Shown piece by piece: positions 51,730 through 64,000 of a DNA stretch of 64,000 nt. The position numbers and the translations under genes are program-made. The notes under the pieces are model-generated. The model was given only the letters and a program-made list of their open reading frames with translations, searched no databases and was not told where the DNA came from. The DNA is taken from the IMG/VR virus record IMGVR_UViG_3300020046_004224, one strand, 5' to 3'. Numbering within the stretch: the first letter of the stretch is position 1; the number at the start of each line of letters is the position of its first letter. The DNA is from a virus (Duplodnaviria > Caudoviricetes).

Positions 51730-51803
51730 TGGCAGCGAATGAAGGTATTGCGCCCTCTTTCCAGGGGTTGGAAGCCTGTACATTACTTTTATGTTAACTC
51801 GCT
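51730..51803 (-). tRNA. tRNA-Trp(CCA)
   Basis: CAGGC-TTCCAAC-CCCTG, A1-U72, G73. Confidence 0.7.
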
Positions 51804-53589: not shown

Positions 53590-54198
53590 TTATTCATGTG
53601 TGCCTCCGTCTAAGAACATTTTCCATTCATCACGCATAAAATTGAAGATCATTCCATTTTTTGGCTTAACAGGCTTTCTCACAAGCTTTAAACCACATTC
53701 TTTCGGAGTTCTGTCACCTTTCCAAATATTGAGCGCCTTATCACACGTCGCCAAATTTTCCCAACTGTTCTGACCGCCTCTTGAGCTAGGCAAAATATGA
53801 TCGATACTGACAGATTCTCTATCAAGTTTCTTACCAGTGTATTGACAGGTGTAGTCATCTCTTTGCCATATATTAGACTTGGTAGGAAATACAACTTTCT
53901 TAAAAATGATTTTGTTGAAACTTGCACATACAATGATTGCAGGAAGACGAAATTCTTCTTTTGAAGTTTTCACAGATTCGTCATATGATCGAACTGGTAA
54001 TTTTCTCCAATCTTCGAAATCACGAACAACTTCCATATATTCGATTTTATTCTTGTTTATATTTCCGTCTTCGTCGATTTCATAAGAAATATCAATAGGG
54101 AATGCCGCACCCGATATTATATCAATCATGGCGGTTTTCCAGTTACTAACTCCACATGGAAAAAATCCCTTTGTTAATTTTAATATTTCTTGTTTCAT
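53590..54198 (-). CDS. HNH endonuclease
   Basis: RDDYTCQYTG, SIDHILP.SRGG.NSWENL...N..K.DRTP. Confidence 0.88.
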   Translation of the reverse strand: MKQEILKLTKGFFPCGVSNWKTAMIDIISGAAFPIDISYEIDEDGNINKNKIEYMEVVRDFEDWRKLPVRSYDESVKTSKEEFRLPAIIVCASFNKIIFKKVVFPTKSNIWQRDDYTCQYTGKKLDRESVSIDHILPSSRGGQNSWENLATCDKALNIWKGDRTPKECGLKLVRKPVKPKNGMIFNFMRDEWKMFLDGGTHE

Positions 54199-54723: not shown

Positions 54724-55176
54724 TTATTGTAACTTACTTCCTACCAATGTTGAAATTGTTCTGTTATCAGTTGCACCATTTACAAGCTCTGAAACACGTT
54801 TGATAACCTTACCCATATCCTTCTTAGATGTGGCTCCAAGCTGTGCAATAACACCGTCAACGAGGATTTCGAGTTGCATATCAGTCAGTGCAGGAGGAAG
54901 ATATTCGCGGAGTAATTGCATCTCCAAAAGTTCCGTTGCTGCTAATTCGATTCTGTTTTCCTTTGTAAAAATATTAAAGGAATCTTCTCGTTGTGCAACT
55001 TGTTTACGAATAATACTAAGTGCCTCAGTATCCTCTAAGGGCGTATTAACATTTCCTTTGATAATTGCGGCATTTGTGAATGCATTTTTAAGTTGCCGCA
55101 ACATTGCAAGCTTGGTTTTATCAGACTTGCGCATTGCATCCTTGATATCTTCGTTAATTTGTTCTTGTAGTTTCAT
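54724..55176 (-). CDS. GatB/YqeY domain protein
   Basis: KDAMR, QREDS...F....R.ELA..E, YLP, KDMGKV. Confidence 0.9.
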   Translation of the reverse strand: MKLQEQINEDIKDAMRKSDKTKLAMLRQLKNAFTNAAIIKGNVNTPLEDTEALSIIRKQVAQREDSFNIFTKENRIELAATELLEMQLLREYLPPALTDMQLEILVDGVIAQLGATSKKDMGKVIKRVSELVNGATDNRTISTLVGSKLQ

Positions 55177-55784: not shown

Positions 55785-56822
55785 ATGAAAAAATGTTTAA
55801 TATGCGATTTATCTCTTAGTGGCAAACAACGATTATTCTGTTCCAGATTATGTAAAGACAAACACTATGCAACCATGGATGATTCTTTAGACGCACCTCT
55901 TATAGAAGAAATAAAAATGTTGTATAATAGTGGTTTAAGTTTTCGACATATAGCAATACTAAAAGGTATTCCCAAACTCGTTCTTTGGAAATTAGGGCGA
56001 ACGGGGGTGGTCCCTTCCCGAACACGGGGTCAACAAGCAACTTTAACCAATACAGGACGCACACAAAGTCCAGAATCTAGGGAGAAAATATCCAAGGCAA
56101 GAAAAAAATTCTTATCCGAGAATCCAAATATGGTGCCGTATAAACTAAATCATAAGCACACCAAAATATCTTACCCAGAACAATACTTCATAGAATGTTT
56201 TCAAAACAAATTCGTCTATCAGCACAGAGTTTCAACATATACCTTAGATTTTGCTGATATCGAAAATAAACTGGATATAGAAATTGATGGATGTCAACAT
56301 CGTTTAGACCCTAAAATTGTTAATCATGATTGGAAAAGAAACATATACTTAACTGAACATGGATGGAATGTTTTACGAATAAACTGGTCAATCTTTAAAA
56401 GTCTTCCACCAGAAAACCAACGAAATATAGTGAAAGATATACTACAGGATATTGTTCCTAGTTCTTCGTCGATATCGTTCTATCCAGCAAACATTGCTAT
56501 ATCTAATGAAGAATTTATGATAAATATTCAGAGATTAAAGAATCGTAATATATGTCCTATATGTGGTTCGCATAAATGTGCAGAATCTATAAACTGCTCC
56601 AAATGTGCAGGCAGCACCCGAGTTAAAATACCCTGGCCCTCTGTTGAAGAAATGTCAAAGATGATCTGGGAAATTCCTGCAACTCGGATTGCACAAAATA
56701 TGGGAATATCAGACAATGCTGTTATCAAATTCTGTCGAAAACATAATATCTCAAAACCAGAGCGTGGATATTGGCAAAAACTATATGGTGGAGACACGGA
56801 GAGTCGCGCTCCGAATTCCTAA
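55785..56822 (+). CDS. putative homing endonuclease (DUF559/Vsr-like)
   Basis: SYPE, YTLDFA, IEIDG.QH, D.KRN.YL...GW.VLRI; zinc finger and HTH. Confidence 0.8.
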   Translation: MKKCLICDLSLSGKQRLFCSRLCKDKHYATMDDSLDAPLIEEIKMLYNSGLSFRHIAILKGIPKLVLWKLGRTGVVPSRTRGQQATLTNTGRTQSPESREKISKARKKFLSENPNMVPYKLNHKHTKISYPEQYFIECFQNKFVYQHRVSTYTLDFADIENKLDIEIDGCQHRLDPKIVNHDWKRNIYLTEHGWNVLRINWSIFKSLPPENQRNIVKDILQDIVPSSSSISFYPANIAISNEEFMINIQRLKNRNICPICGSHKCAESINCSKCAGSTRVKIPWPSVEEMSKMIWEIPATRIAQNMGISDNAVIKFCRKHNISKPERGYWQKLYGGDTESRAPNS

Positions 56823-56860
56823 TTGCAAGTTAGGTGTGTTACTGTTAGCACTATGCCCCC
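56786..56860 (-). tRNA. tRNA-Ala(TGC)
   Basis: CCTAA-CTTGCAA-TTAGG; G3:U70; CCA. Confidence 0.85.
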
Positions 56861-56871
56861 TTATATCTTTA

Positions 56872-56946
56872 CGGTCTAGATAGTGAGTACCGCCCTCACA
56901 TCCACTGAATCCCAAATTCAGGGCATTACTTGTCTGCCATATCTAG
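56872..56946 (-). tRNA. tRNA-Pro(TGG)
   Basis: CTGAA-TTTGGGA-TTCAG; C1-G72, A73. Confidence 0.8.
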
Positions 56947-57009
56947 ATTAAATCTTTCGGAAAATTATAAACTTAATATTCCCTGCCCTTGTCAATTCAA
57001 GTCGTTATG

Positions 57010-57084
57010 TGCCGATTGCGGAAGTCGAATCCGCATTTTCCAGTTTGAAAAACTAGTGCTCTAGTCCAGTTAAGCTAAATCGGC
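57010..57084 (-). tRNA. tRNA with TTC (Glu) anticodon on an atypical body
   Basis: CTAGT-TTTTCAA-ACTGG; body GCCGATTTAGCT... Confidence 0.7.
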
Positions 57085-57095
57085 TTTTGTGAAAT

Positions 57096-57191
57096 TGGTG
57101 GGCGGGAATTCTCGCTATTATGAAATACGTTTCACGATACTTTCAGCCATACGAGCTTAGGAAATCATGAGGTACTTGTCAAGCGCCGCCC
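57096..57191 (-). ncRNA. CCA-terminated RNA with acceptor stem but non-tRNA interior
   Basis: GGGCGG/CCGCCC-ACCA; no canonical T or D loop. Confidence 0.5.
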
Positions 57192-57226
57192 ATTTAAAAC
57201 TATCTTTTTAATTGATTATATTTTAC

Positions 57227-57448
57227 AAAAGGTGTGCTTCTACGCCAAAGAAGAATCAAGCCTTACCAGTTACGGGGTACTCTTTTACTTTCCACGGTTA
57301 GACGGTATCCAACTTGAGTATCAATATCTAACTTTGATATACTCAAGTCACCACAATCATTAGTTACTTAAAACTAACTCGTTGGCATCGGAGGCCCGCG
57401 TTTCGCTTCACTCATTAAAGATGGCTGCTTCTAAGCCAACTACCTTTT
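57227..57448 (-). ncRNA. 23S rRNA H43-H44 (uL11-binding GTPase-associated centre) mimic RNA
   Basis: GTTGGCTTAGAAGCAGCCATC and GCGTAGAAGCACAC enclosed by AAAAGG/CCTTTT, ~165-nt insert. Confidence 0.8.
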
Positions 57449-57461
57449 TATAAAAAAAACT

Positions 57462-57577
57462 TTCTGATTATAGGACTCGAACCTATACCTACTTAATGTC
57501 GTATCTAATACTCTAGTCGGAATTGCACCGATTTCCGCCCCTCGACGGGGTTGTGCTGCCATTAACACCAAATCAAA
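57462..57577 (-). ncRNA. tRNA-like RNA with two T arms
   Basis: acceptor TTTGATT/AATCAGA, D arm, CCCC/GGGG arm, TCGG-TGCAATT-CCGA and ATAGG-TTCGAGT-CCTAT. Confidence 0.55.
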
Positions 57578-57580
57578 AAT

Positions 57581-57655
57581 TGGCGTCCCCTGTTGGAATT
57601 GAACCAACGTTTATAGTTCGAGAAACTATTATCCTAACCGCTAGACGAAGGGGAC
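57581..57655 (-). tRNA. tRNA-Glu(CTC)
   Basis: GTCCCCTTCGTCTAG Glu body; ATAGT-TTCTCGA-ACTAT; CCA. Confidence 0.88.
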
Positions 57656-58019
57656 ATTTGCTACTACTCACTAAGATACATCAGGTTTCAGAAGAGTCAA
57701 GAAGTTTTTGAAATTCTCGGAGCTTCCAGATCATACTCAATGCATACTTCATTTTGAGTTCTTCTCTTGAAAACATTTTTGGGTCTTCTGCTATCTTGTA
57801 TTCGCCACCAGAATGATTGCAATATTCTTTCCAAGAAACTCTCTTCATTTCAGGAGATTCATCATAATCAAATTTAGGAAATGCACCATAACTATAGAAT
57901 CCAACATGCTTGCCCACCTGAACATCACATTCTTGATGCTCTAGCAAATCTTTCTCTAGTGCATTTGCTGCAAAATATGCTAATAATATGTTTTCATTCA
58001 TTCTATCATTTCTTAATTT

Positions 58020-58918: not shown

Positions 58919-59401
58919 TTATTTCAATAATTCAGGATTTTCAAATATATTACCGATAACACACATTCTTGCTCTGCCACAAATAGGAGAAGATGGAGGT
59001 AGTTCATATCGATATATAGTACCTGTCGAATCGTCTCCTACTATATAACGCATCCAACTAAAATCTCCAATACCTCCGTCTGGGGCAGTGCCCAATTTAA
59101 TCGGTTTCAACTTAAATGCACCGTCATCAAAGATAACTTTGAATAAACAAGATGTATCAACTTCGATCACATCATAATACTTTAAATAAACTATATCGCC
59201 CTCATATATTTCTTGTTTGTTAACATCTTTTTTTCCTGTAAATGATTGAACAACGAACCAATCGTCTGTTCTTTTGAGAAATTCTGAAACAGGTGCATTC
59301 CCTTTTAAAAGATATGATGGTTCAAAGTCTAATCCATTGGAAGTAGATAAAAAACGATTTTGTCCACGACTTTCCCAAATTCGGAATTTAACATCTTTCA
59401 T
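58919..59401 (-). CDS. YopX family protein
   Basis: KFRIW, FTGKKDVNKQEIYEGDI, IGNIFENPEL. Confidence 0.85.
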   Translation of the reverse strand: MKDVKFRIWESRGQNRFLSTSNGLDFEPSYLLKGNAPVSEFLKRTDDWFVVQSFTGKKDVNKQEIYEGDIVYLKYYDVIEVDTSCLFKVIFDDGAFKLKPIKLGTAPDGGIGDFSWMRYIVGDDSTGTIYRYELPPSSPICGRARMCVIGNIFENPELLK

Positions 59402-59898: not shown

Positions 59899-62800
59899 AT
59901 GATTTTAAATAGTGTCACATCAGCCGCAGCGTTCCCAACCGAAGAACTTGTAATAAATATTAATGATGTGTCCCCTGCATTGAATAATATTCGAACAGGT
60001 GTTCGCTATACATATTATCAATATAATAACTCAGATAAATTTTTAACAAACACATCTTACTCACTGTCATCTATTGCAACGGAAGTAGACTTTAATAATG
60101 ATCTGTATCAGCCGACAACTTCTGCCAATCTTCCCGGCGATTTTCCGGTTAAATGGACAATAAATCACACATCAGTTCCTACCAATACTAATCACTTCCT
60201 TTATTTGACATTCCTTGGTGGTGCATCTGCAATATCAGTCCATCCAACCCAGCCTTATCCAATAGTAACAAAACTATCAAATAGCCAGATGACGGTATCG
60301 TGTGGTATGTTACCATTTCAGTCATATGAAGGAGAAGTCACAAAAGACGATTTTCGCCATGATCTTTCTACATCTTTGGTGAAAAATGCATCAACCTTTG
60401 GTATGACTTTTACCGTTTCGTTACCGTATATATCCAAAGGAAGACGAGATTTTGTTTTTGCTAATACGAAAAATTACTCCAATACACTGAAAGCAACCCT
60501 CGATAAAAACATAATCGGAAATAGTTTTAGTGTTACAGTTCCATTGGTATCTGCCAAAACCCAAACCGACTATACATGGAACACTGTTTTATATGATAGA
60601 ACATCATTAGTGACATCCCAAAATACAGAATCAATAACATTGACATCATTATCCTCGGAAGAATTACAACAAGAAGTCGGTGTAAATGCCCCTTATTTCG
60701 GAACATCGACCCTCAATCTTGCAACAGGTGCATTGAACTTGATTACAAAAGCACCTCTATTAGTGGCAGGAAATGATACAATCATATGCACATACGAAAC
60801 ATCTTCTGTATTATCTCCTTCTGAATATACGGTAACTACACCAGGAGCAAATTATTTCAACATATCGACAAACACAAATCCTATCTATTTTTACAACTAT
60901 GGTTTTAGATATTCAGGAACAGGTGTAACCGCAAAAGATGCATTCACTGTTAGTTTTTATCCTTCTGCTGGTATTACTGCAACCGGGACATCCGACTCTC
61001 TGGGAGTATCGTCTGTATATGTGTCAACTGTTTTCAACGATAGTTTCTTCCAAACATCGTATCCTATAGAAATAAATTCATCAAACATGAAAAAGCGTTT
61101 CATAGAACGATCCGATGATTATTCTCTTAGTGCATTTGATGTTGCCACAAACATTCTTTATAAAAATAATCAATGGATGCCTGCAAGTGCCGTGATGCGA
61201 TTTGTGAATGATGGGTTAGGAAACAATTATACTGCGGGAATACAATTAAGTTCTAAAATAGGAGCAATTTACAATTGTACAGAAGATGTTAATTTCCTTC
61301 TTAATAATAAGAATATTGTATTTTCATTATATCTAACAGAATATGATGATGTTTCTGCCCGTGTAAATGCCGTGGTATTCCCTTCACCCGATCCTGAACT
61401 GTTAATAAAGTGGGGTGCATTTCCTCCAGAAAATATAACACTGAGGGATGTCAACACTGGTCAAGAATTGGAACTTGGTGAATATTATCCTGCGGGAGAC
61501 ATCGAGGTAGATGTTTACAATCTCGGTGTAGATAAAACTCAAATAACCTTGTATTCACAAGAATTTGAAACCTCTGCAAGCACTTATTGGTTTCCATCTT
61601 CTTCTGTTATAGGTGATGTGTATTTAGAAATTCGTGATAACCTTACCGATTATAATCCAACAAACACAGGAGAGATAAGTGCATTCTTCAATAGACGTGG
61701 ATATTTATACCGTGTTCCGACCAATGCGAATATCATATGGTCCGAACGTATAAATTCCGATCTCGGTACCATAAGGTTCAATACTAGAGATAATGCTCGA
61801 CTCATAGAGGAATCGACCGTTTATCCATCAACTATAAATTATTCAGTGATGCAGGCATCGGTATCTACTCTTCCTGTTATTAAGAATCCATCAAGAGTCG
61901 CATTCAGTATATCTTGTAATGTGTTTGATGAGGATTATTCTATAGAAGGTAACAGATTAATTTATTTCCGTGCATACCCCGAAGACATACTATTATACAT
62001 GATAGCATCGTCGGGAGTGGGGTATGAGGATAGTAGTGAACGCACCAATATAATATCAACAACTTCTGGAATTTGGTCATTATCGGCCCAATATCCTAAT
62101 CTTGTTATCGATTCGTTATCTAGTATAATATGGACTAGTCATAATTCCAACGGAGTCACATTAACTGGAAGTGGTGATACATTCTCATTAACTTTAAGTA
62201 CTCTATCTGCATATGTGAACATCTCGGCTGCAAATGTCACACCGTTCTTAGGTAACTTCAAAAGTTATAATTTTTATGATACATTGAATTTCTATCTACT
62301 TTCATCACTTCCTGTTATGGATTATATAGGGTTTCCTGAATTTAAATATGATACTACCGGAAAAACACAGTTAACATATAATACACGCACCGCCTCCCAA
62401 GGTATGACATCATATAATCCATGTCATACAGAGAATTTCTTATTCTCTGCAACACCTGGATTTACTACATATAAATGGTCTTTGGGTAATTTGAATATAA
62501 CTACAGATTCCAATCTTGTCACCATTCCTGTAGAATATTCAGATATCTCTGCATCGGGACTTATTCAGCTATCCGCCTTTAATGATGTATTTCTGGAGTC
62601 GGATCAAAAAACAGTTTATAATTTTGTATCATCAGATAATTCAACCAAATATAAACAAGATATAGATTTTATAAACTATAAAGATAGTTCAATAACACTG
62701 TCTGTTGATAATGATCTTTATGATACTTCTAAATATACATCTAGACCGTTGATGTCAGTTGTTATAGACACCAAAGACCTAATGTTAAATTCATTTGACA

Positions 62801-64000
62801 TAAATGTGGTTCTTAGTGGAATCAGCGGTGTTCAGTTGAAGAACTTAGTGGGCACTATCAATGCATTTGATAAACAATTCAAGGCAGACATACAGAATTC
62901 AGATTTCATCATTGCAGAAAATTCATTCAATAACTTCAATCTATATCTTTCAGGTAATGTAAATGTAACCTATGGTTCTGGGTTCTGTTCCAGAAATCAA
63001 CCAGTGTCATCCTCAGTAATTCCGTTGTCAGTGTTTAATGGTCCAAATCTAGATTTATATACTGAAAAAAATATTATTTCTTCTGGAGAGATAGCATACT
63101 TCTACAACAGAAGCAATGATAATTTCTCATCAAATTCATATAGAAGTTTTACTGCATTTACGTTCGATGCAGGAGATGGAACATTAACATCGTCTACATC
63201 TGCTATTCTATCAGCGGCGTATGTCAGCGAGGGGGTTTATACTCCCATGTTGACTGGGTTCTTAACCACCGGTGAAGTGCTAACCTCTCAATGGTCTAAG
63301 ATGGTATGTGTCCACGATTCATTCGACTCTTATGATGAGAATATTCTCACACAATTCAATAGTGAATATAGCTTGCCATATTCTTTAAATGATGTCAAAA
63401 TAAGCGCAAACTCATGGCAATATGCCTCGGTTATAAACAATTCGTTTGATAAATTAAAGACCAATTTGGAATTCTTATCATCCCGATGTGCCTCGTATAA
63501 TACAAATTATCCGATTGCATTTGGCGGATATTTAGGAACTAAGTTTAACAACTTCAAATGGATTACCAATTATGACACAACTGATGTAGATAACAACGTA
63601 TTCGAAAATATCAATTGTGGAACCATATATGATGGTAAATTAATTTGTATGAATGGTGGTAACTTGGAAATATTTGATATATCTTCAACACCATCTAAAT
63701 TATACTCTTCGTCAAAAATAAACAAAAACGAAGTATTCATCAATGTTGTTAAATTAAAATATGATGGTAATCGTCTGTATATCCTTGATAGAGGGCGTAA
63801 GTCATTTTTCGTTTTATTATTTGATATAGACTCTCCTGAAACATCAGAGCTTACTCATTATTGGGGCGGGATCGGTGATCGTCTAGGTCGAACAAAATTC
63901 AACGATCCGGTAGATTTTGTGTTGGACTCTGATAATAATATATACATATTGGATAAGGCGTCCTATATAATCAAGGTTTATAATAAAAATTTAAACTGGA
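59899..64000 (+). CDS. very large Ser/Thr-rich virion protein (PKD-like and NHL-repeat-like parts), 3' partial
   Basis: frame from ATG 59899 (MILNSVTSAAAFPTEE...) open in the stretches I translated, up to the window end; FDAGDG PKD-like motif; FNDPVDFVLDSDNNIYILD NHL-like repeat; TAAATA upstream. Confidence 0.85.
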   Translation, partial: MILNSVTSAAAFPTEELVININDVSPALNNIRTGVRYTYYQYNNSDKFLTNTSYSLSSIATEVDFNNDLYQPTTSANLPGDFPVKWTINHTSVPTNTNHFLYLTFLGGASAISVHPTQPYPIVTKLSNSQMTVSCGMLPFQSYEGEVTKDDFRHDLSTSLVKNASTFGMTFTVSLPYISKGRRDFVFANTKNYSNTLKATLDKNIIGNSFSVTVPLVSAKTQTDYTWNTVLYDRTSLVTSQNTESITLTSLSSEELQQEVGVNAPYFGTSTLNLATGALNLITKAPLLVAGNDTIICTYETSSVLSPSEYTVTTPGANYFNISTNTNPIYFYNYGFRYSGTGVTAKDAFTVSFYPSAGITATGTSDSLGVSSVYVSTVFNDSFFQTSYPIEINSSNMKKRFIERSDDYSLSAFDVATNILYKNNQWMPASAVMRFVNDGLGNNYTAGIQLSSKIGAIYNCTEDVNFLLNNKNIVFSLYLTEYDDVSARVNAVVFPSPDPELLIKWGAFPPENITLRDVNTGQELELGEYYPAGDIEVDVYNLGVDKTQITLYSQEFETSASTYWFPSSSVIGDVYLEIRDNLTDYNPTNTGEISAFFNRRGYLYRVPTNANIIWSERINSDLGTIRFNTRDNARLIEESTVYPSTINYSVMQASVSTLPVIKNPSRVAFSISCNVFDEDYSIEGNRLIYFRAYPEDILLYMIASSGVGYEDSSERTNIISTTSGIWSLSAQYPNLVIDSLSSIIWTSHNSNGVTLTGSGDTFSLTLSTLSAYVNISAANVTPFLGNFKSYNFYDTLNFYLLSSLPVMDYIGFPEFKYDTTGKTQLTYNTRTASQGMTSYNPCHTENFLFSATPGFTTYKWSLGNLNITTDSNLVTIPVEYSDISASGLIQLSAFNDVFLESDQKTVYNFVSSDNSTKYKQDIDFINYKDSSITLSVDNDLYDTSKYTSRPLMSVVIDTKDLMLNSFDINVVLSGISGVQLKNLVGTINAFDKQFKADIQNSDFIIAENSFNNFNLYLSGNVNVTYGSGFCSRNQPVSSSVIPLSVFNGPNLDLYTEKNIISSGEIAYFYNRSNDNFSSNSYRSFTAFTFDAGDGTLTSSTSAILSAAYVSEGVYTPMLTGFLTTGEVLTSQWSKMVCVHDSFDSYDENILTQFNSEYSLPYSLNDVKISANSWQYASVINNSFDKLKTNLEFLSSRCASYNTNYPIAFGGYLGTKFNNFKWITNYDTTDVDNNVFENINCGTIYDGKLICMNGGNLEIFDISSTPSKLYSSSKINKNEVFINVVKLKYDGNRLYILDRGRKSFFVLLFDIDSPETSELTHYWGGIGDRLGRTKFNDPVDFVLDSDNNIYILDKASYIIKVYNKNLNW

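Follow-up and report, generated by a model that had tools for sequence, protein, structure and literature searches.

Why should a large phage carry, among its transfer RNA (tRNA) genes, a copy of the part of 23S ribosomal RNA (rRNA) known as the GTPase-associated centre (GAC)? This question is raised by a 64,000-nt stretch of DNA (the window; IMG/VR record IMGVR_UViG_3300020046_004224), which comes from a large uncultured phage and contains, on the minus strand and inside the tRNA gene cluster, an element of this kind at 57227-57448. Judging from its sequence, the element seems to be the gene for a non-coding RNA copying the 23S domain that binds the ribosomal protein uL11 and meets the translation GTPases. 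It is one of a family, whose members are conserved, structured RNA genes of GAC-like, self-closed form within the tRNA arrays of phages.

Structure of the element

A preliminary description of this locus, made from its letters alone, had proposed a phage non-coding RNA that rebuilds the uL11-binding centre from two separated halves, and its structural claims are borne out by our analysis. The proposed helix 43 match is exact: the segment 57440-57420, GUUGGCUUAGAAGCAGCCAUC, agrees with 23S rRNA at 21 of 21 positions, A1067 included, and is identical to natural 1059-1079 in the sequences of 68 Pseudomonadota and 11 Bacillota genomes. Apart from its engineered U1061A, a published GAC construct of 60 nt also agrees with GUUGGCUUAGAAGCAGCCAUC (PMC1802607). 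Even with three mismatches allowed, this 21-mer occurs only once in the window, and none is expected by chance (100 shuffles). The flanking pair corresponding to 1058-1080 is swapped, as had been noticed, being A57441-U57419 in the window and U1058-A1080 in E. coli. The other half, the helix 44 copy at 57245-57232 (GCGUAGAAGCACAC; natural sequence GCGUAAUAGCUCAC), is identical at 11 of 14 positions and changed only at 1096, 1097 and 1101; G1091-A1095 and A1098-C1100 are present, and A1095 itself is unchanged. Helix 43 is followed by the junction strand UUAAUGAGU, in which both 1082 and 1086 are U.

The insert between the halves, first put at about 165 nt, is 160 nt when counted from U1090 (57410) to the UUUG linker (57249), and 174 nt separate the end of the 21-mer from GCG. 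The three-way junction is not uninterrupted here, nor are positions 1087-1093 continuous: the 160-nt domain and UUUG, placed at U1090/G1091, turn it into a four-way junction. The AAAAGG/CCTTTT stem that was said to close the element does join its two ends (Table 1), its first strand being two nucleotides away from the helix 43 copy.

The absence of other rRNA sequence nearby is confirmed as well: the Rfam large-subunit model (LSU_rRNA_bacteria) has no match in the whole window at the gathering score, nor in 56700-58000 at E-values up to 10. The element lies, on the same strand, between the genes for tRNA-Glu(CUC) at 57581-57655 and tRNA-Glu(UUC) at 57009-57084, within an array of at least 17 tRNA genes, which agrees with the suggested position inside a tRNA operon. 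A covariance model (R1) built from 34 other members of the family has its sole match in the window at 57220-57454 on the minus strand (85.4 bits, E 3e-23). The minimum-energy fold of the element does not recover the GAC fold, and its stability is not unusual (z -1.64; z -1.40 for the insert folded alone); thermodynamic folding is uninformative for this element.

A family of RNAs in large phages

The preliminary description had also recommended a search for the split motif, and in viral contigs the homologues do keep both halves. A scan for the exact helix 43 21-mer gave 94 loci, only two of which (L069 and L080) are real 23S rRNA with contiguous helices 43 and 44, and nearly all of the others have GGCGUANNAGCACAC 77-370 nt downstream. 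The reverse scan, made with the 3' half only, gave at least 120 loci, nearly all with a helix 43 copy (0-5 substitutions) upstream. Over 200 loci found with either half keep the other one. Since both one-half scans recover the opposite half, each half predicts the other.

The layout is common to the family: GG, 2-3 nt, the 21-mer, 2 nt complementary to those preceding it, (U/C/A)UAA(A/G/U)GAGU and a variable stretch, with nearly all members ending in UUUGGCGUANNAGCACAC and then the complement of the 5' flank. We collected 134 unique elements of 91-415 nt. A pattern meant to find further close relatives, GAGTGAAGCGAA...TCC, gave 19 new loci, none of which belongs to the family. In the contigs of bacterial and archaeal genomes, one per species (596 Gb), the 3' pattern had 114 matches, of which 38 are real members, mostly on contigs of metagenome-assembled genomes assigned to many phyla; the remaining matches are at the chance level for 16 fixed bases. 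The family can thus be regarded as belonging essentially to large phages; those carrier genomes that are complete and were examined by us are 100-430 kb in size and usually contain one copy.

Cultured carriers, found with a consensus-like 46-nt query and the element of phage GAP32, include the Pseudomonas phages pf16, Astolliot and Milchi, Aeromonas phage 4_4572, the Xanthomonas phages XacN1, XbC2 and XaC1, Cronobacter phage GAP32, Pectobacterium phage CBB, Serratia phage BF, six Erwinia pEa_SNUABM phages and Kaldavass, the Yersinia phages fHe-Yen9-03 and fHe-Yen9-04, and Acinetobacter phage ME3. Four were confirmed with the covariance model (pf16, 102.7 bits; GAP32, 91.6; 4_4572, 90.3; XacN1, 90.1), and in all four records the element occupies an unannotated gap, which in pf16 is located between tRNA-Asn and tRNA-Pro. 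A gene annotated as “tRNA amidotransferase” is present near the pf16 copy, and in XacN1 (L309, AP018399, about 150350-150600) the element is directly downstream of an annotated 2'-5' RNA ligase gene. The association with tRNA genes is general: in 137 of the 137 loci holding a tRNA the nearest one is on the same strand, and 37% of the elements are within 50 nt of a tRNA. No conserved protein neighbour was revealed, the largest protein cluster being present in 7 of 170 loci. Rfam 15 contains no matching family, and a full-text literature search, in which the core sequence was included, gave no description of it; the RNA family seems to be previously unrecognised.

Fold-preserving evolution

The suggestion that the fold is under selection was followed up with two alignments. 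For 34 hand-checked sequences aligned with MAFFT, the GAC secondary structure, the closing stem and the insert-base helix were written on the alignment; 86.8% of the cells are paired (64.4% after shuffling), with a covariation score of 0.574 versus 0.156, and none of 500 shuffles reaches it. Sliding the partners by 1-3 columns reduces the pairing to 32-51%. For 100 distinct sequences aligned to R1, an alignment that is fitted to the model and leans toward the modelled structure, the respective values are 88.8% versus 64.2% and 0.598 versus 0.151, again with 0 of 500 shuffles reaching the score.

Individual pairs of the 100 members show the same tendency. All 10 modelled pairs of the closing stem covary; 1058-1080 is UA in 41, GC in 29 and AU in 16 members, and 1057-1081 is AU in 81 and CG in 9. 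The cross-loop pair 1082-1086, a tertiary contact specific to the GAC, is UA in 49, CG in 29 and AU in 11 members, and G1087-C1102 is GC in 98. At the base of the insert, the first pair of the helix P-ins (GC 60, AU 24, UA 11) and the second one (GC 48, AU 29, CG 8, UA 7) are never unpaired. Because the halves predict each other, the variable helices change by compensation and 1082-1086 covaries, selection on the fold is strongly supported by these comparisons, and with it the structural reading of the element as a rebuilt GAC.

The junction sequence is informative about the family history. Natural 23S rRNA has ...AAAGAGUGCGUAAUAGCUCAC in Bacillota and ...AAAGAAAGCG... in Pseudomonadota, and up to U1090 the phage consensus (U/C/A)UAA(A/G/U)GAGU is identical to the former. 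At 1087-1090, the phages of enterobacteria and Pseudomonas retain GAGU where their hosts have GAAA; this is why we consider the family to be inherited among phages rather than recaptured from hosts. One member, L132 (1049-1181, minus strand of its contig), has 32 nt identical to 23S rRNA that reach the lower helix 42 (AGACAGCCAGGAU...). We rejected the possibility that it is a 23S gene with an insertion: it has no large-subunit match and sits in a tRNA cluster. L132 points to an rRNA origin of the family and may be an evolutionary intermediate. It also has a 20-nt hairpin at 1078/1079.

The retained lower helix 42 of L132 is what one would expect if the elements were dead fragments of host 23S rRNA picked up by phages, or chance resemblances. 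However, the 21-mer is not expected by chance, over 200 loci have features foreign to rRNA (insert, UUUG, A1101) and helices that change by compensation, and the GAGU of the enterobacterial and Pseudomonas phages is not that of their hosts. Such a reading is contradicted by the covariation data, and we consider it barely credible.

Conservation of the ribosomal surfaces

Helix 43 statistics were taken from 115 elements chosen by the 3' half alone, and those of the linker and helix 44 from 59 elements chosen by the 21-mer alone. G1059, U1060, G1063, C1072 and C1075 are present in 115 of 115 elements, and most positions of the helix 43 stem and the 1065-1073 loop are conserved in more than 90%; A1088 is invariant in the 34-sequence alignment. 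Position 1078 is U or C, as it is in natural genomes. Some positions are less constrained: 1067 is A in 91%, 1068 is A in 17% and 1070 is G in 16% of the elements, and 1061 is U in 73%, A in 18%, G in 6% and C in 3%, while in the 79 natural genomes 1061 (U) and 1067-1070 are invariant though the search pattern left them free. U1061A serves in vitro to stabilise the tertiary fold of the GAC (PMC1802607), and the enrichment of A1061 fits an RNA which would have to fold alone.

On the other side of the insert, the linker is U in 58, 58 and 55 and G in 55 of the 59 members at its successive positions. G1091-U1094 and A1098-C1100 are invariant, and A1095 is present in 58 of 59. Position 1101 is A in 59 of 59 members and U in every natural sequence sampled; we infer that A1101 pairs with U1090, keeping helix 44 stacked under the branch.

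The published footprint of the uL11 C-terminal domain comprises 1058-1060, 1062-1065, 1075-1083 and 1088, and the contacts of thiostrepton and the L11 N-terminal domain are around 1067-1070 and 1095-1098 (PMC1802607). The nucleotides of the fold and of the C-terminal-domain footprint are invariant in the family or changed only in compensating pairs. Our reading is that selection would be strongest on the autonomous fold and the surface for the uL11 C-terminal domain, and somewhat weaker on the factor-facing helix 43 loop.

The preserved helix 44 loop bears on an alternative, according to which the RNA would be a decoy substrate for enzymes or toxins attacking the GAC (ADP-ribosyltransferase, methyltransferase, nuclease) and would spare the ribosomes translating phage mRNAs, in parallel to the idea of phage tRNAs replacing or shielding those of the host. 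A toxin of this kind is documented: Tre23 modifies helix 44 by ADP-ribosylation around 1095-1098, and the EF-G GTPase is blocked (PMC8661411). The loop framework of the phage RNAs (G1093, U1094, A1095, A1098) is almost invariant, and their tRNA arrays are a typical home of counter-defence RNA genes. However, 1096 and 1097, within the mapped Tre23 window, vary freely, and a family spread over the phages of many phyla would require an attacker just as widespread, while we know of no anti-phage defence system targeting the GAC. This explanation is unlikely, in our opinion.

Another function suggested by the same loops is that of a sponge or platform for EF-G, EF-Tu, IF2, RF3 or RelA, alone or with uL11, altering the availability of these factors or (p)ppGpp. 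The 1067 and 1095 loops, which meet the factors, are largely kept, and uL11 is needed for RelA activation. But the factors bind the ribosome via several sites at once, including the sarcin-ricin loop and the stalk; the window has no copy of the sarcin-ricin loop, and the helix 43 loop is less conserved than in rRNA. We regard a factor sponge as quite improbable.

The insert and its possible role

The main insert is always situated between U1090 and G1091, a place outside the published lists of uL11 and thiostrepton/L11 N-terminal-domain contacts (PMC1802607). Inserts vary from about 45 to 350 nt, and every member has one of at least about 45 nt. A common architecture, class I, is found in 32 of the 134 unique elements (the window, its relatives L190, L016, L019 and L025 among them, and also pf16): a 4-bp helix with CGAA on its 5' side and, on the 3' side, AGUR, an irregular hairpin, GAWUY and the return strand. 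The hairpin follows the layout NN-CA-CC-CCx[4-nt loop]x'GG-UAA-GG-N'N'; its loop-closing pair x-x' is formed in 97% of cases with 4 pair types, its basal pairs in 100% (4 types) and 91% (3 types), and the loop is either GNRA or UAAC. The copy in the window, Hb, has an irregular stem with a 2-nt bulge, a 3-nt bulge and a 4-nt loop. The distal hairpin 57349-57311 has compensatory stem substitutions and an unchanged apical loop in the closest relatives, L190 and L016; the RNAalifold consensus of six close relatives was partly wrong.

A second recurring insert motif, ...UGCGAAAUG..., occurs in L003, L011, L036, L117 and L160, with subfamilies that either lack the class-I hairpin or have both. The class-I insert of pf16 was likened by us to the sarcin-ricin loop, and this was rejected since the stretch varies among members. 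A second insertion, into the 3' strand of helix 43 around 1078, is found in L100, L124, L150, L151, L153, L172, L179 and L180.

Perhaps the GAC fold, which is compact and very stable, is a scaffold, possibly capped by uL11, which clamps and protects the ends of the RNA, and it is the insert that carries the function by binding another factor or RNA. The obligatory insert argues for this, since no bare copy was found besides true 23S rRNA, as do the conserved and covarying class-I domain, the apical loop kept over a compensating stem at 57349-57311 and the enrichment of the fold-stabilising A1061. Yet the inserts differ in size and sequence between subfamilies, the GAC core alone being common to all, and the exposed A1067 and A1095 (98%) are kept, though the fold does not need them. 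We consider a pure scaffold improbable, to the same degree as the decoy substrate.

Table 1. Positions of the GAC-like RNA gene and its parts within the window
Feature	Position	Strand	Remarks
Whole GAC-mimic RNA gene	57227..57448	minus	222 nt, from closing stem to closing stem; covariance model R1
P1, 5' strand AAAAGG	57443..57448	minus	Replaces the top of helix 42; pairs with 57227-57232
Helix 43 copy (23S 1059-1079, A1067 loop included)	57420..57440	minus	21/21 identity
Junction (= 1082-1090)	57410..57418	minus	1082-1086 loop, G1087, A1088, G1089, U1090
Insert domain	57250..57409	minus	160 nt, branching at U1090/G1091; P-ins, CGAAA, P2, distal hairpins, Hb
P-ins GAAG/CUUC	57409-57406 with 57253-57250	minus	Covarying family helix
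Junction strand CGAAA and helix P2	P2: 57400-57396 with 57297-57293	minus	In the insert domain
Distal hairpins	57380-57359 and 57349-57311	minus	In the insert domain
Class-I insert hairpin Hb	57254..57286	minus	AA..AG-UA-CC-CC-G[UAAC]U-GG-UAA-GG-CU..UU
UUUG linker	57246..57249	minus	From the insert to G1091; family-specific, not in rRNA
Helix 44 copy (23S 1091-1104, A1095 loop included)	57232..57245	minus	A replaces U1101
P1, 3' strand CCUUUU	57227..57232	minus	Pairs with 57443-57448

Comparison with known RNAs

The closest counterpart is the GAC itself, the 58-60-nt domain for uL11 and thiostrepton (E. coli 1051-1108), which comprises helices 43 and 44 together with the top of helix 42. Helix 43 of the phage element is identical to it, and the family has the same junction as the Bacillota type, the same helix 44 loop framework, the invariant G1087-C1102, U1060 and A1088 and the covarying 1082-1086; even the variable spots are common to both (1078 as U/C, 1062/1076 in pairs, 1097). 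The differences are that the phage element stands alone with an arbitrary closing stem, whereas the GAC is part of a 2.9-kb rRNA, and that the phage RNA always has the 1090/1091 branch with UUUG, has A1101 for U and frequently A1061, and is less constrained in its 1067-1070 loop.

The logic of a non-ribosomal RNA imitating a protein site of rRNA is shared with the leaders of ribosomal protein operons, e.g., the L10(L12)4 leader (Rfam L10_leader), which imitates the neighbouring region of helices 42-44. Those leaders act in cis at the 5' end of bacterial operons and mimic rRNA only loosely and in part, unlike the phage element with its near-identical sequence, its position in a tRNA array and no ribosomal protein gene downstream; neither L10_leader nor another ribosomal protein leader model of Rfam matches it. 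One might suppose by analogy that the element is such a leader, tying the expression of a downstream gene to free uL11, since in some cultured phages an open reading frame (ORF) starts shortly downstream (in GAP32, 30 nt past the element). But in the window it is followed by a tRNA-like element and then by tRNA-Glu, not by an ORF, there is no recurrent downstream protein family, and the element is closed by its own stem. A cis-acting role is very unlikely.

GOLLD and ROOL are also structured non-coding RNAs of phages and prophages, of unassigned function and often located beside tRNA genes; we know of no rRNA mimicry in either. They are 580-800 nt long and form RNA-only cages (PMC12286853), and models of GOLLD, ROOL and the other phage-associated RNAs of Rfam have no match within the element. 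The titration logic proposed here is that of 6S RNA, which mimics open promoter DNA, of CsrB, the CsrA sponge, and of the phage pseudo-ToxI, an antitoxin mimic, but the phage element imitates a ribosomal RNA domain and its target is putative. Phage RNA mimicry directed against host systems is documented (PMC3475682).

Proposed mechanism

We suppose that the element gives rise to a stable non-coding RNA, probably transcribed with the phage tRNA array and cut from that transcript. Its 5' and 3' ends would meet, allowing the top of helix 42, helix 43 and helix 44 to form the compact GAC tertiary fold, and a separately structured domain would branch off helix 44 between U1090 and G1091. Because it is self-closed and has no other rRNA context, such an RNA would act away from the ribosome. 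The GAC fold is exactly what the C-terminal domain of uL11 recognises, and most likely the RNA would present the surface of the ribosomal site and bind host uL11, acting as a free imitation, or “decoy”, of the GAC during infection. Any uL11 partner would be that of the host: 40 carrier records, of which 20 are at least 90% complete, revealed no L11 domain, whereas it was detected in 14 of 14 control genomes.

The sequence comparisons suggest, with moderate confidence, that the RNA is made together with the tRNAs, takes up the GAC fold and is bound by host uL11 away from the ribosome; any consequence for translation, the stringent response or defence is likewise putative. More tentatively, the family may represent portable, self-folding copies of the GAC, each joined to an effector domain and capturing, in large phages of many phyla, host uL11 or a GAC-aimed enzyme off the ribosome. 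The outcome would be blunted uL11-dependent responses (RelA activation) or shielded ribosomes, and the RNA would be a takeover or counter-defence device directed at the translation machinery.

Two other targets are less likely. Binding of the stalk protein uL10 would not be expected because the closing stem is plain, varies freely and is without helix 42 features except in L132, which alone among the members might provide a site for uL10 as well. De-repression of ribosomal protein operons is less likely because in E. coli it is L1, and not uL11, that represses the uL11 operon.

Several observations weigh against capture of uL11 by a simple copy of the GAC. The helix 43 loop is more variable than that of rRNA (1067 is not A in 9% of the elements, besides the substitutions at 1068 and 1070), and the mimic is, for this reason, not bound by all constraints of the ribosomal site. 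The ever-present insert and the conserved class-I domain make the RNA more than a bare decoy. About 9 of the 134 members have a second hairpin at 1078/1079, inside the uL11 C-terminal-domain footprint, which could clash with uL11. Finally, in at least some settings a phage can do without the element: a contig of a related phage, taken from a public DNA run, joins 57088 to 57454, with two other letters between them, nearly directly beside tRNA-Glu(UUC), and is without a 365-nt cassette (57089-57453) made up of the GAC-mimic RNA and the tRNA-like element at 57096-57191. As the related phage is without the whole of it, the cassette is accessory and modular.

Genomic neighbourhood in the window

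On both sides the GAC mimic has tRNA-like neighbours on the minus strand. The upstream one (57462-57577) has a good T arm and a partial tRNA match of 16.3 bits at 57462-57521, and the downstream one (57096-57191) has a GGGCGG/CCGCCC acceptor-like stem followed by ACCA; ARAGORN calls neither of them a tRNA. Two more tRNAs, absent from the ARAGORN list, are given by Rfam on the minus strand at 56789-56860 (45.7 bits) and 51733-51803 (36.7 bits). The contig that is without the cassette also has 148 other letters at 57580. Within the element itself there is no match to any other Rfam family, either at the gathering score or, in the scan of 56700-58000, at E-values up to 10. Besides the tRNAs outside the element, this permissive scan gave two chance matches far below the threshold, Plastid-ycf2 (the antisense of tRNA-Glu at 57583-57655) and TCL6_1 (57705-57818).

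The tRNA array is interspersed with genes at 53590-54198 (-), 55785-56822 (+), 58919-59401 (-) and 54724-55176 (-); the genes among the array encode an HNH endonuclease, a DUF559/restriction-endonuclease-like protein on the opposite strand, YopX and a YqeY-like protein (GatB/YqeY domain). The HNH and DUF559 genes around the element are of the homing-endonuclease type. An open-ended ORF at 59899-63999 (+), longer than 1367 aa, belongs to no Pfam family and was not matched by tblastn in cultured phages; the cultured-phage collection contained no blastn match to the window element either. As far as these comparisons reach, the window phage itself is without a cultured relative.

Three wastewater runs of one study, labelled as RNA-Seq cDNA and rated as probably DNA, contain short contigs identical to 56983-57288 and 57329-57478. 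We did not count them as evidence of expression, and the very high read depth at 57409-57445 is that of real 23S rRNA of other organisms. No RNA data set is listed as containing this stretch.

Significance

If the proposed reading is true, the element would be the first known case of a viral RNA that imitates a functional centre of rRNA, and a common gene class would be added to the tRNA arrays of large phages. The cultured carriers (pf16, GAP32, CBB, XacN1 and 4_4572) make the idea testable. The family also represents a natural mutational data set for the GAC fold, with two permissive insertion sites, the frequent A1061 and the constant A1101, and it would offer a handle on how an rRNA domain folds and works alone. 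For the biology of large phages, it would provide a handle on their manipulation of uL11, the stalk base or the stringent response, and on whether host or competitor systems attack the GAC.

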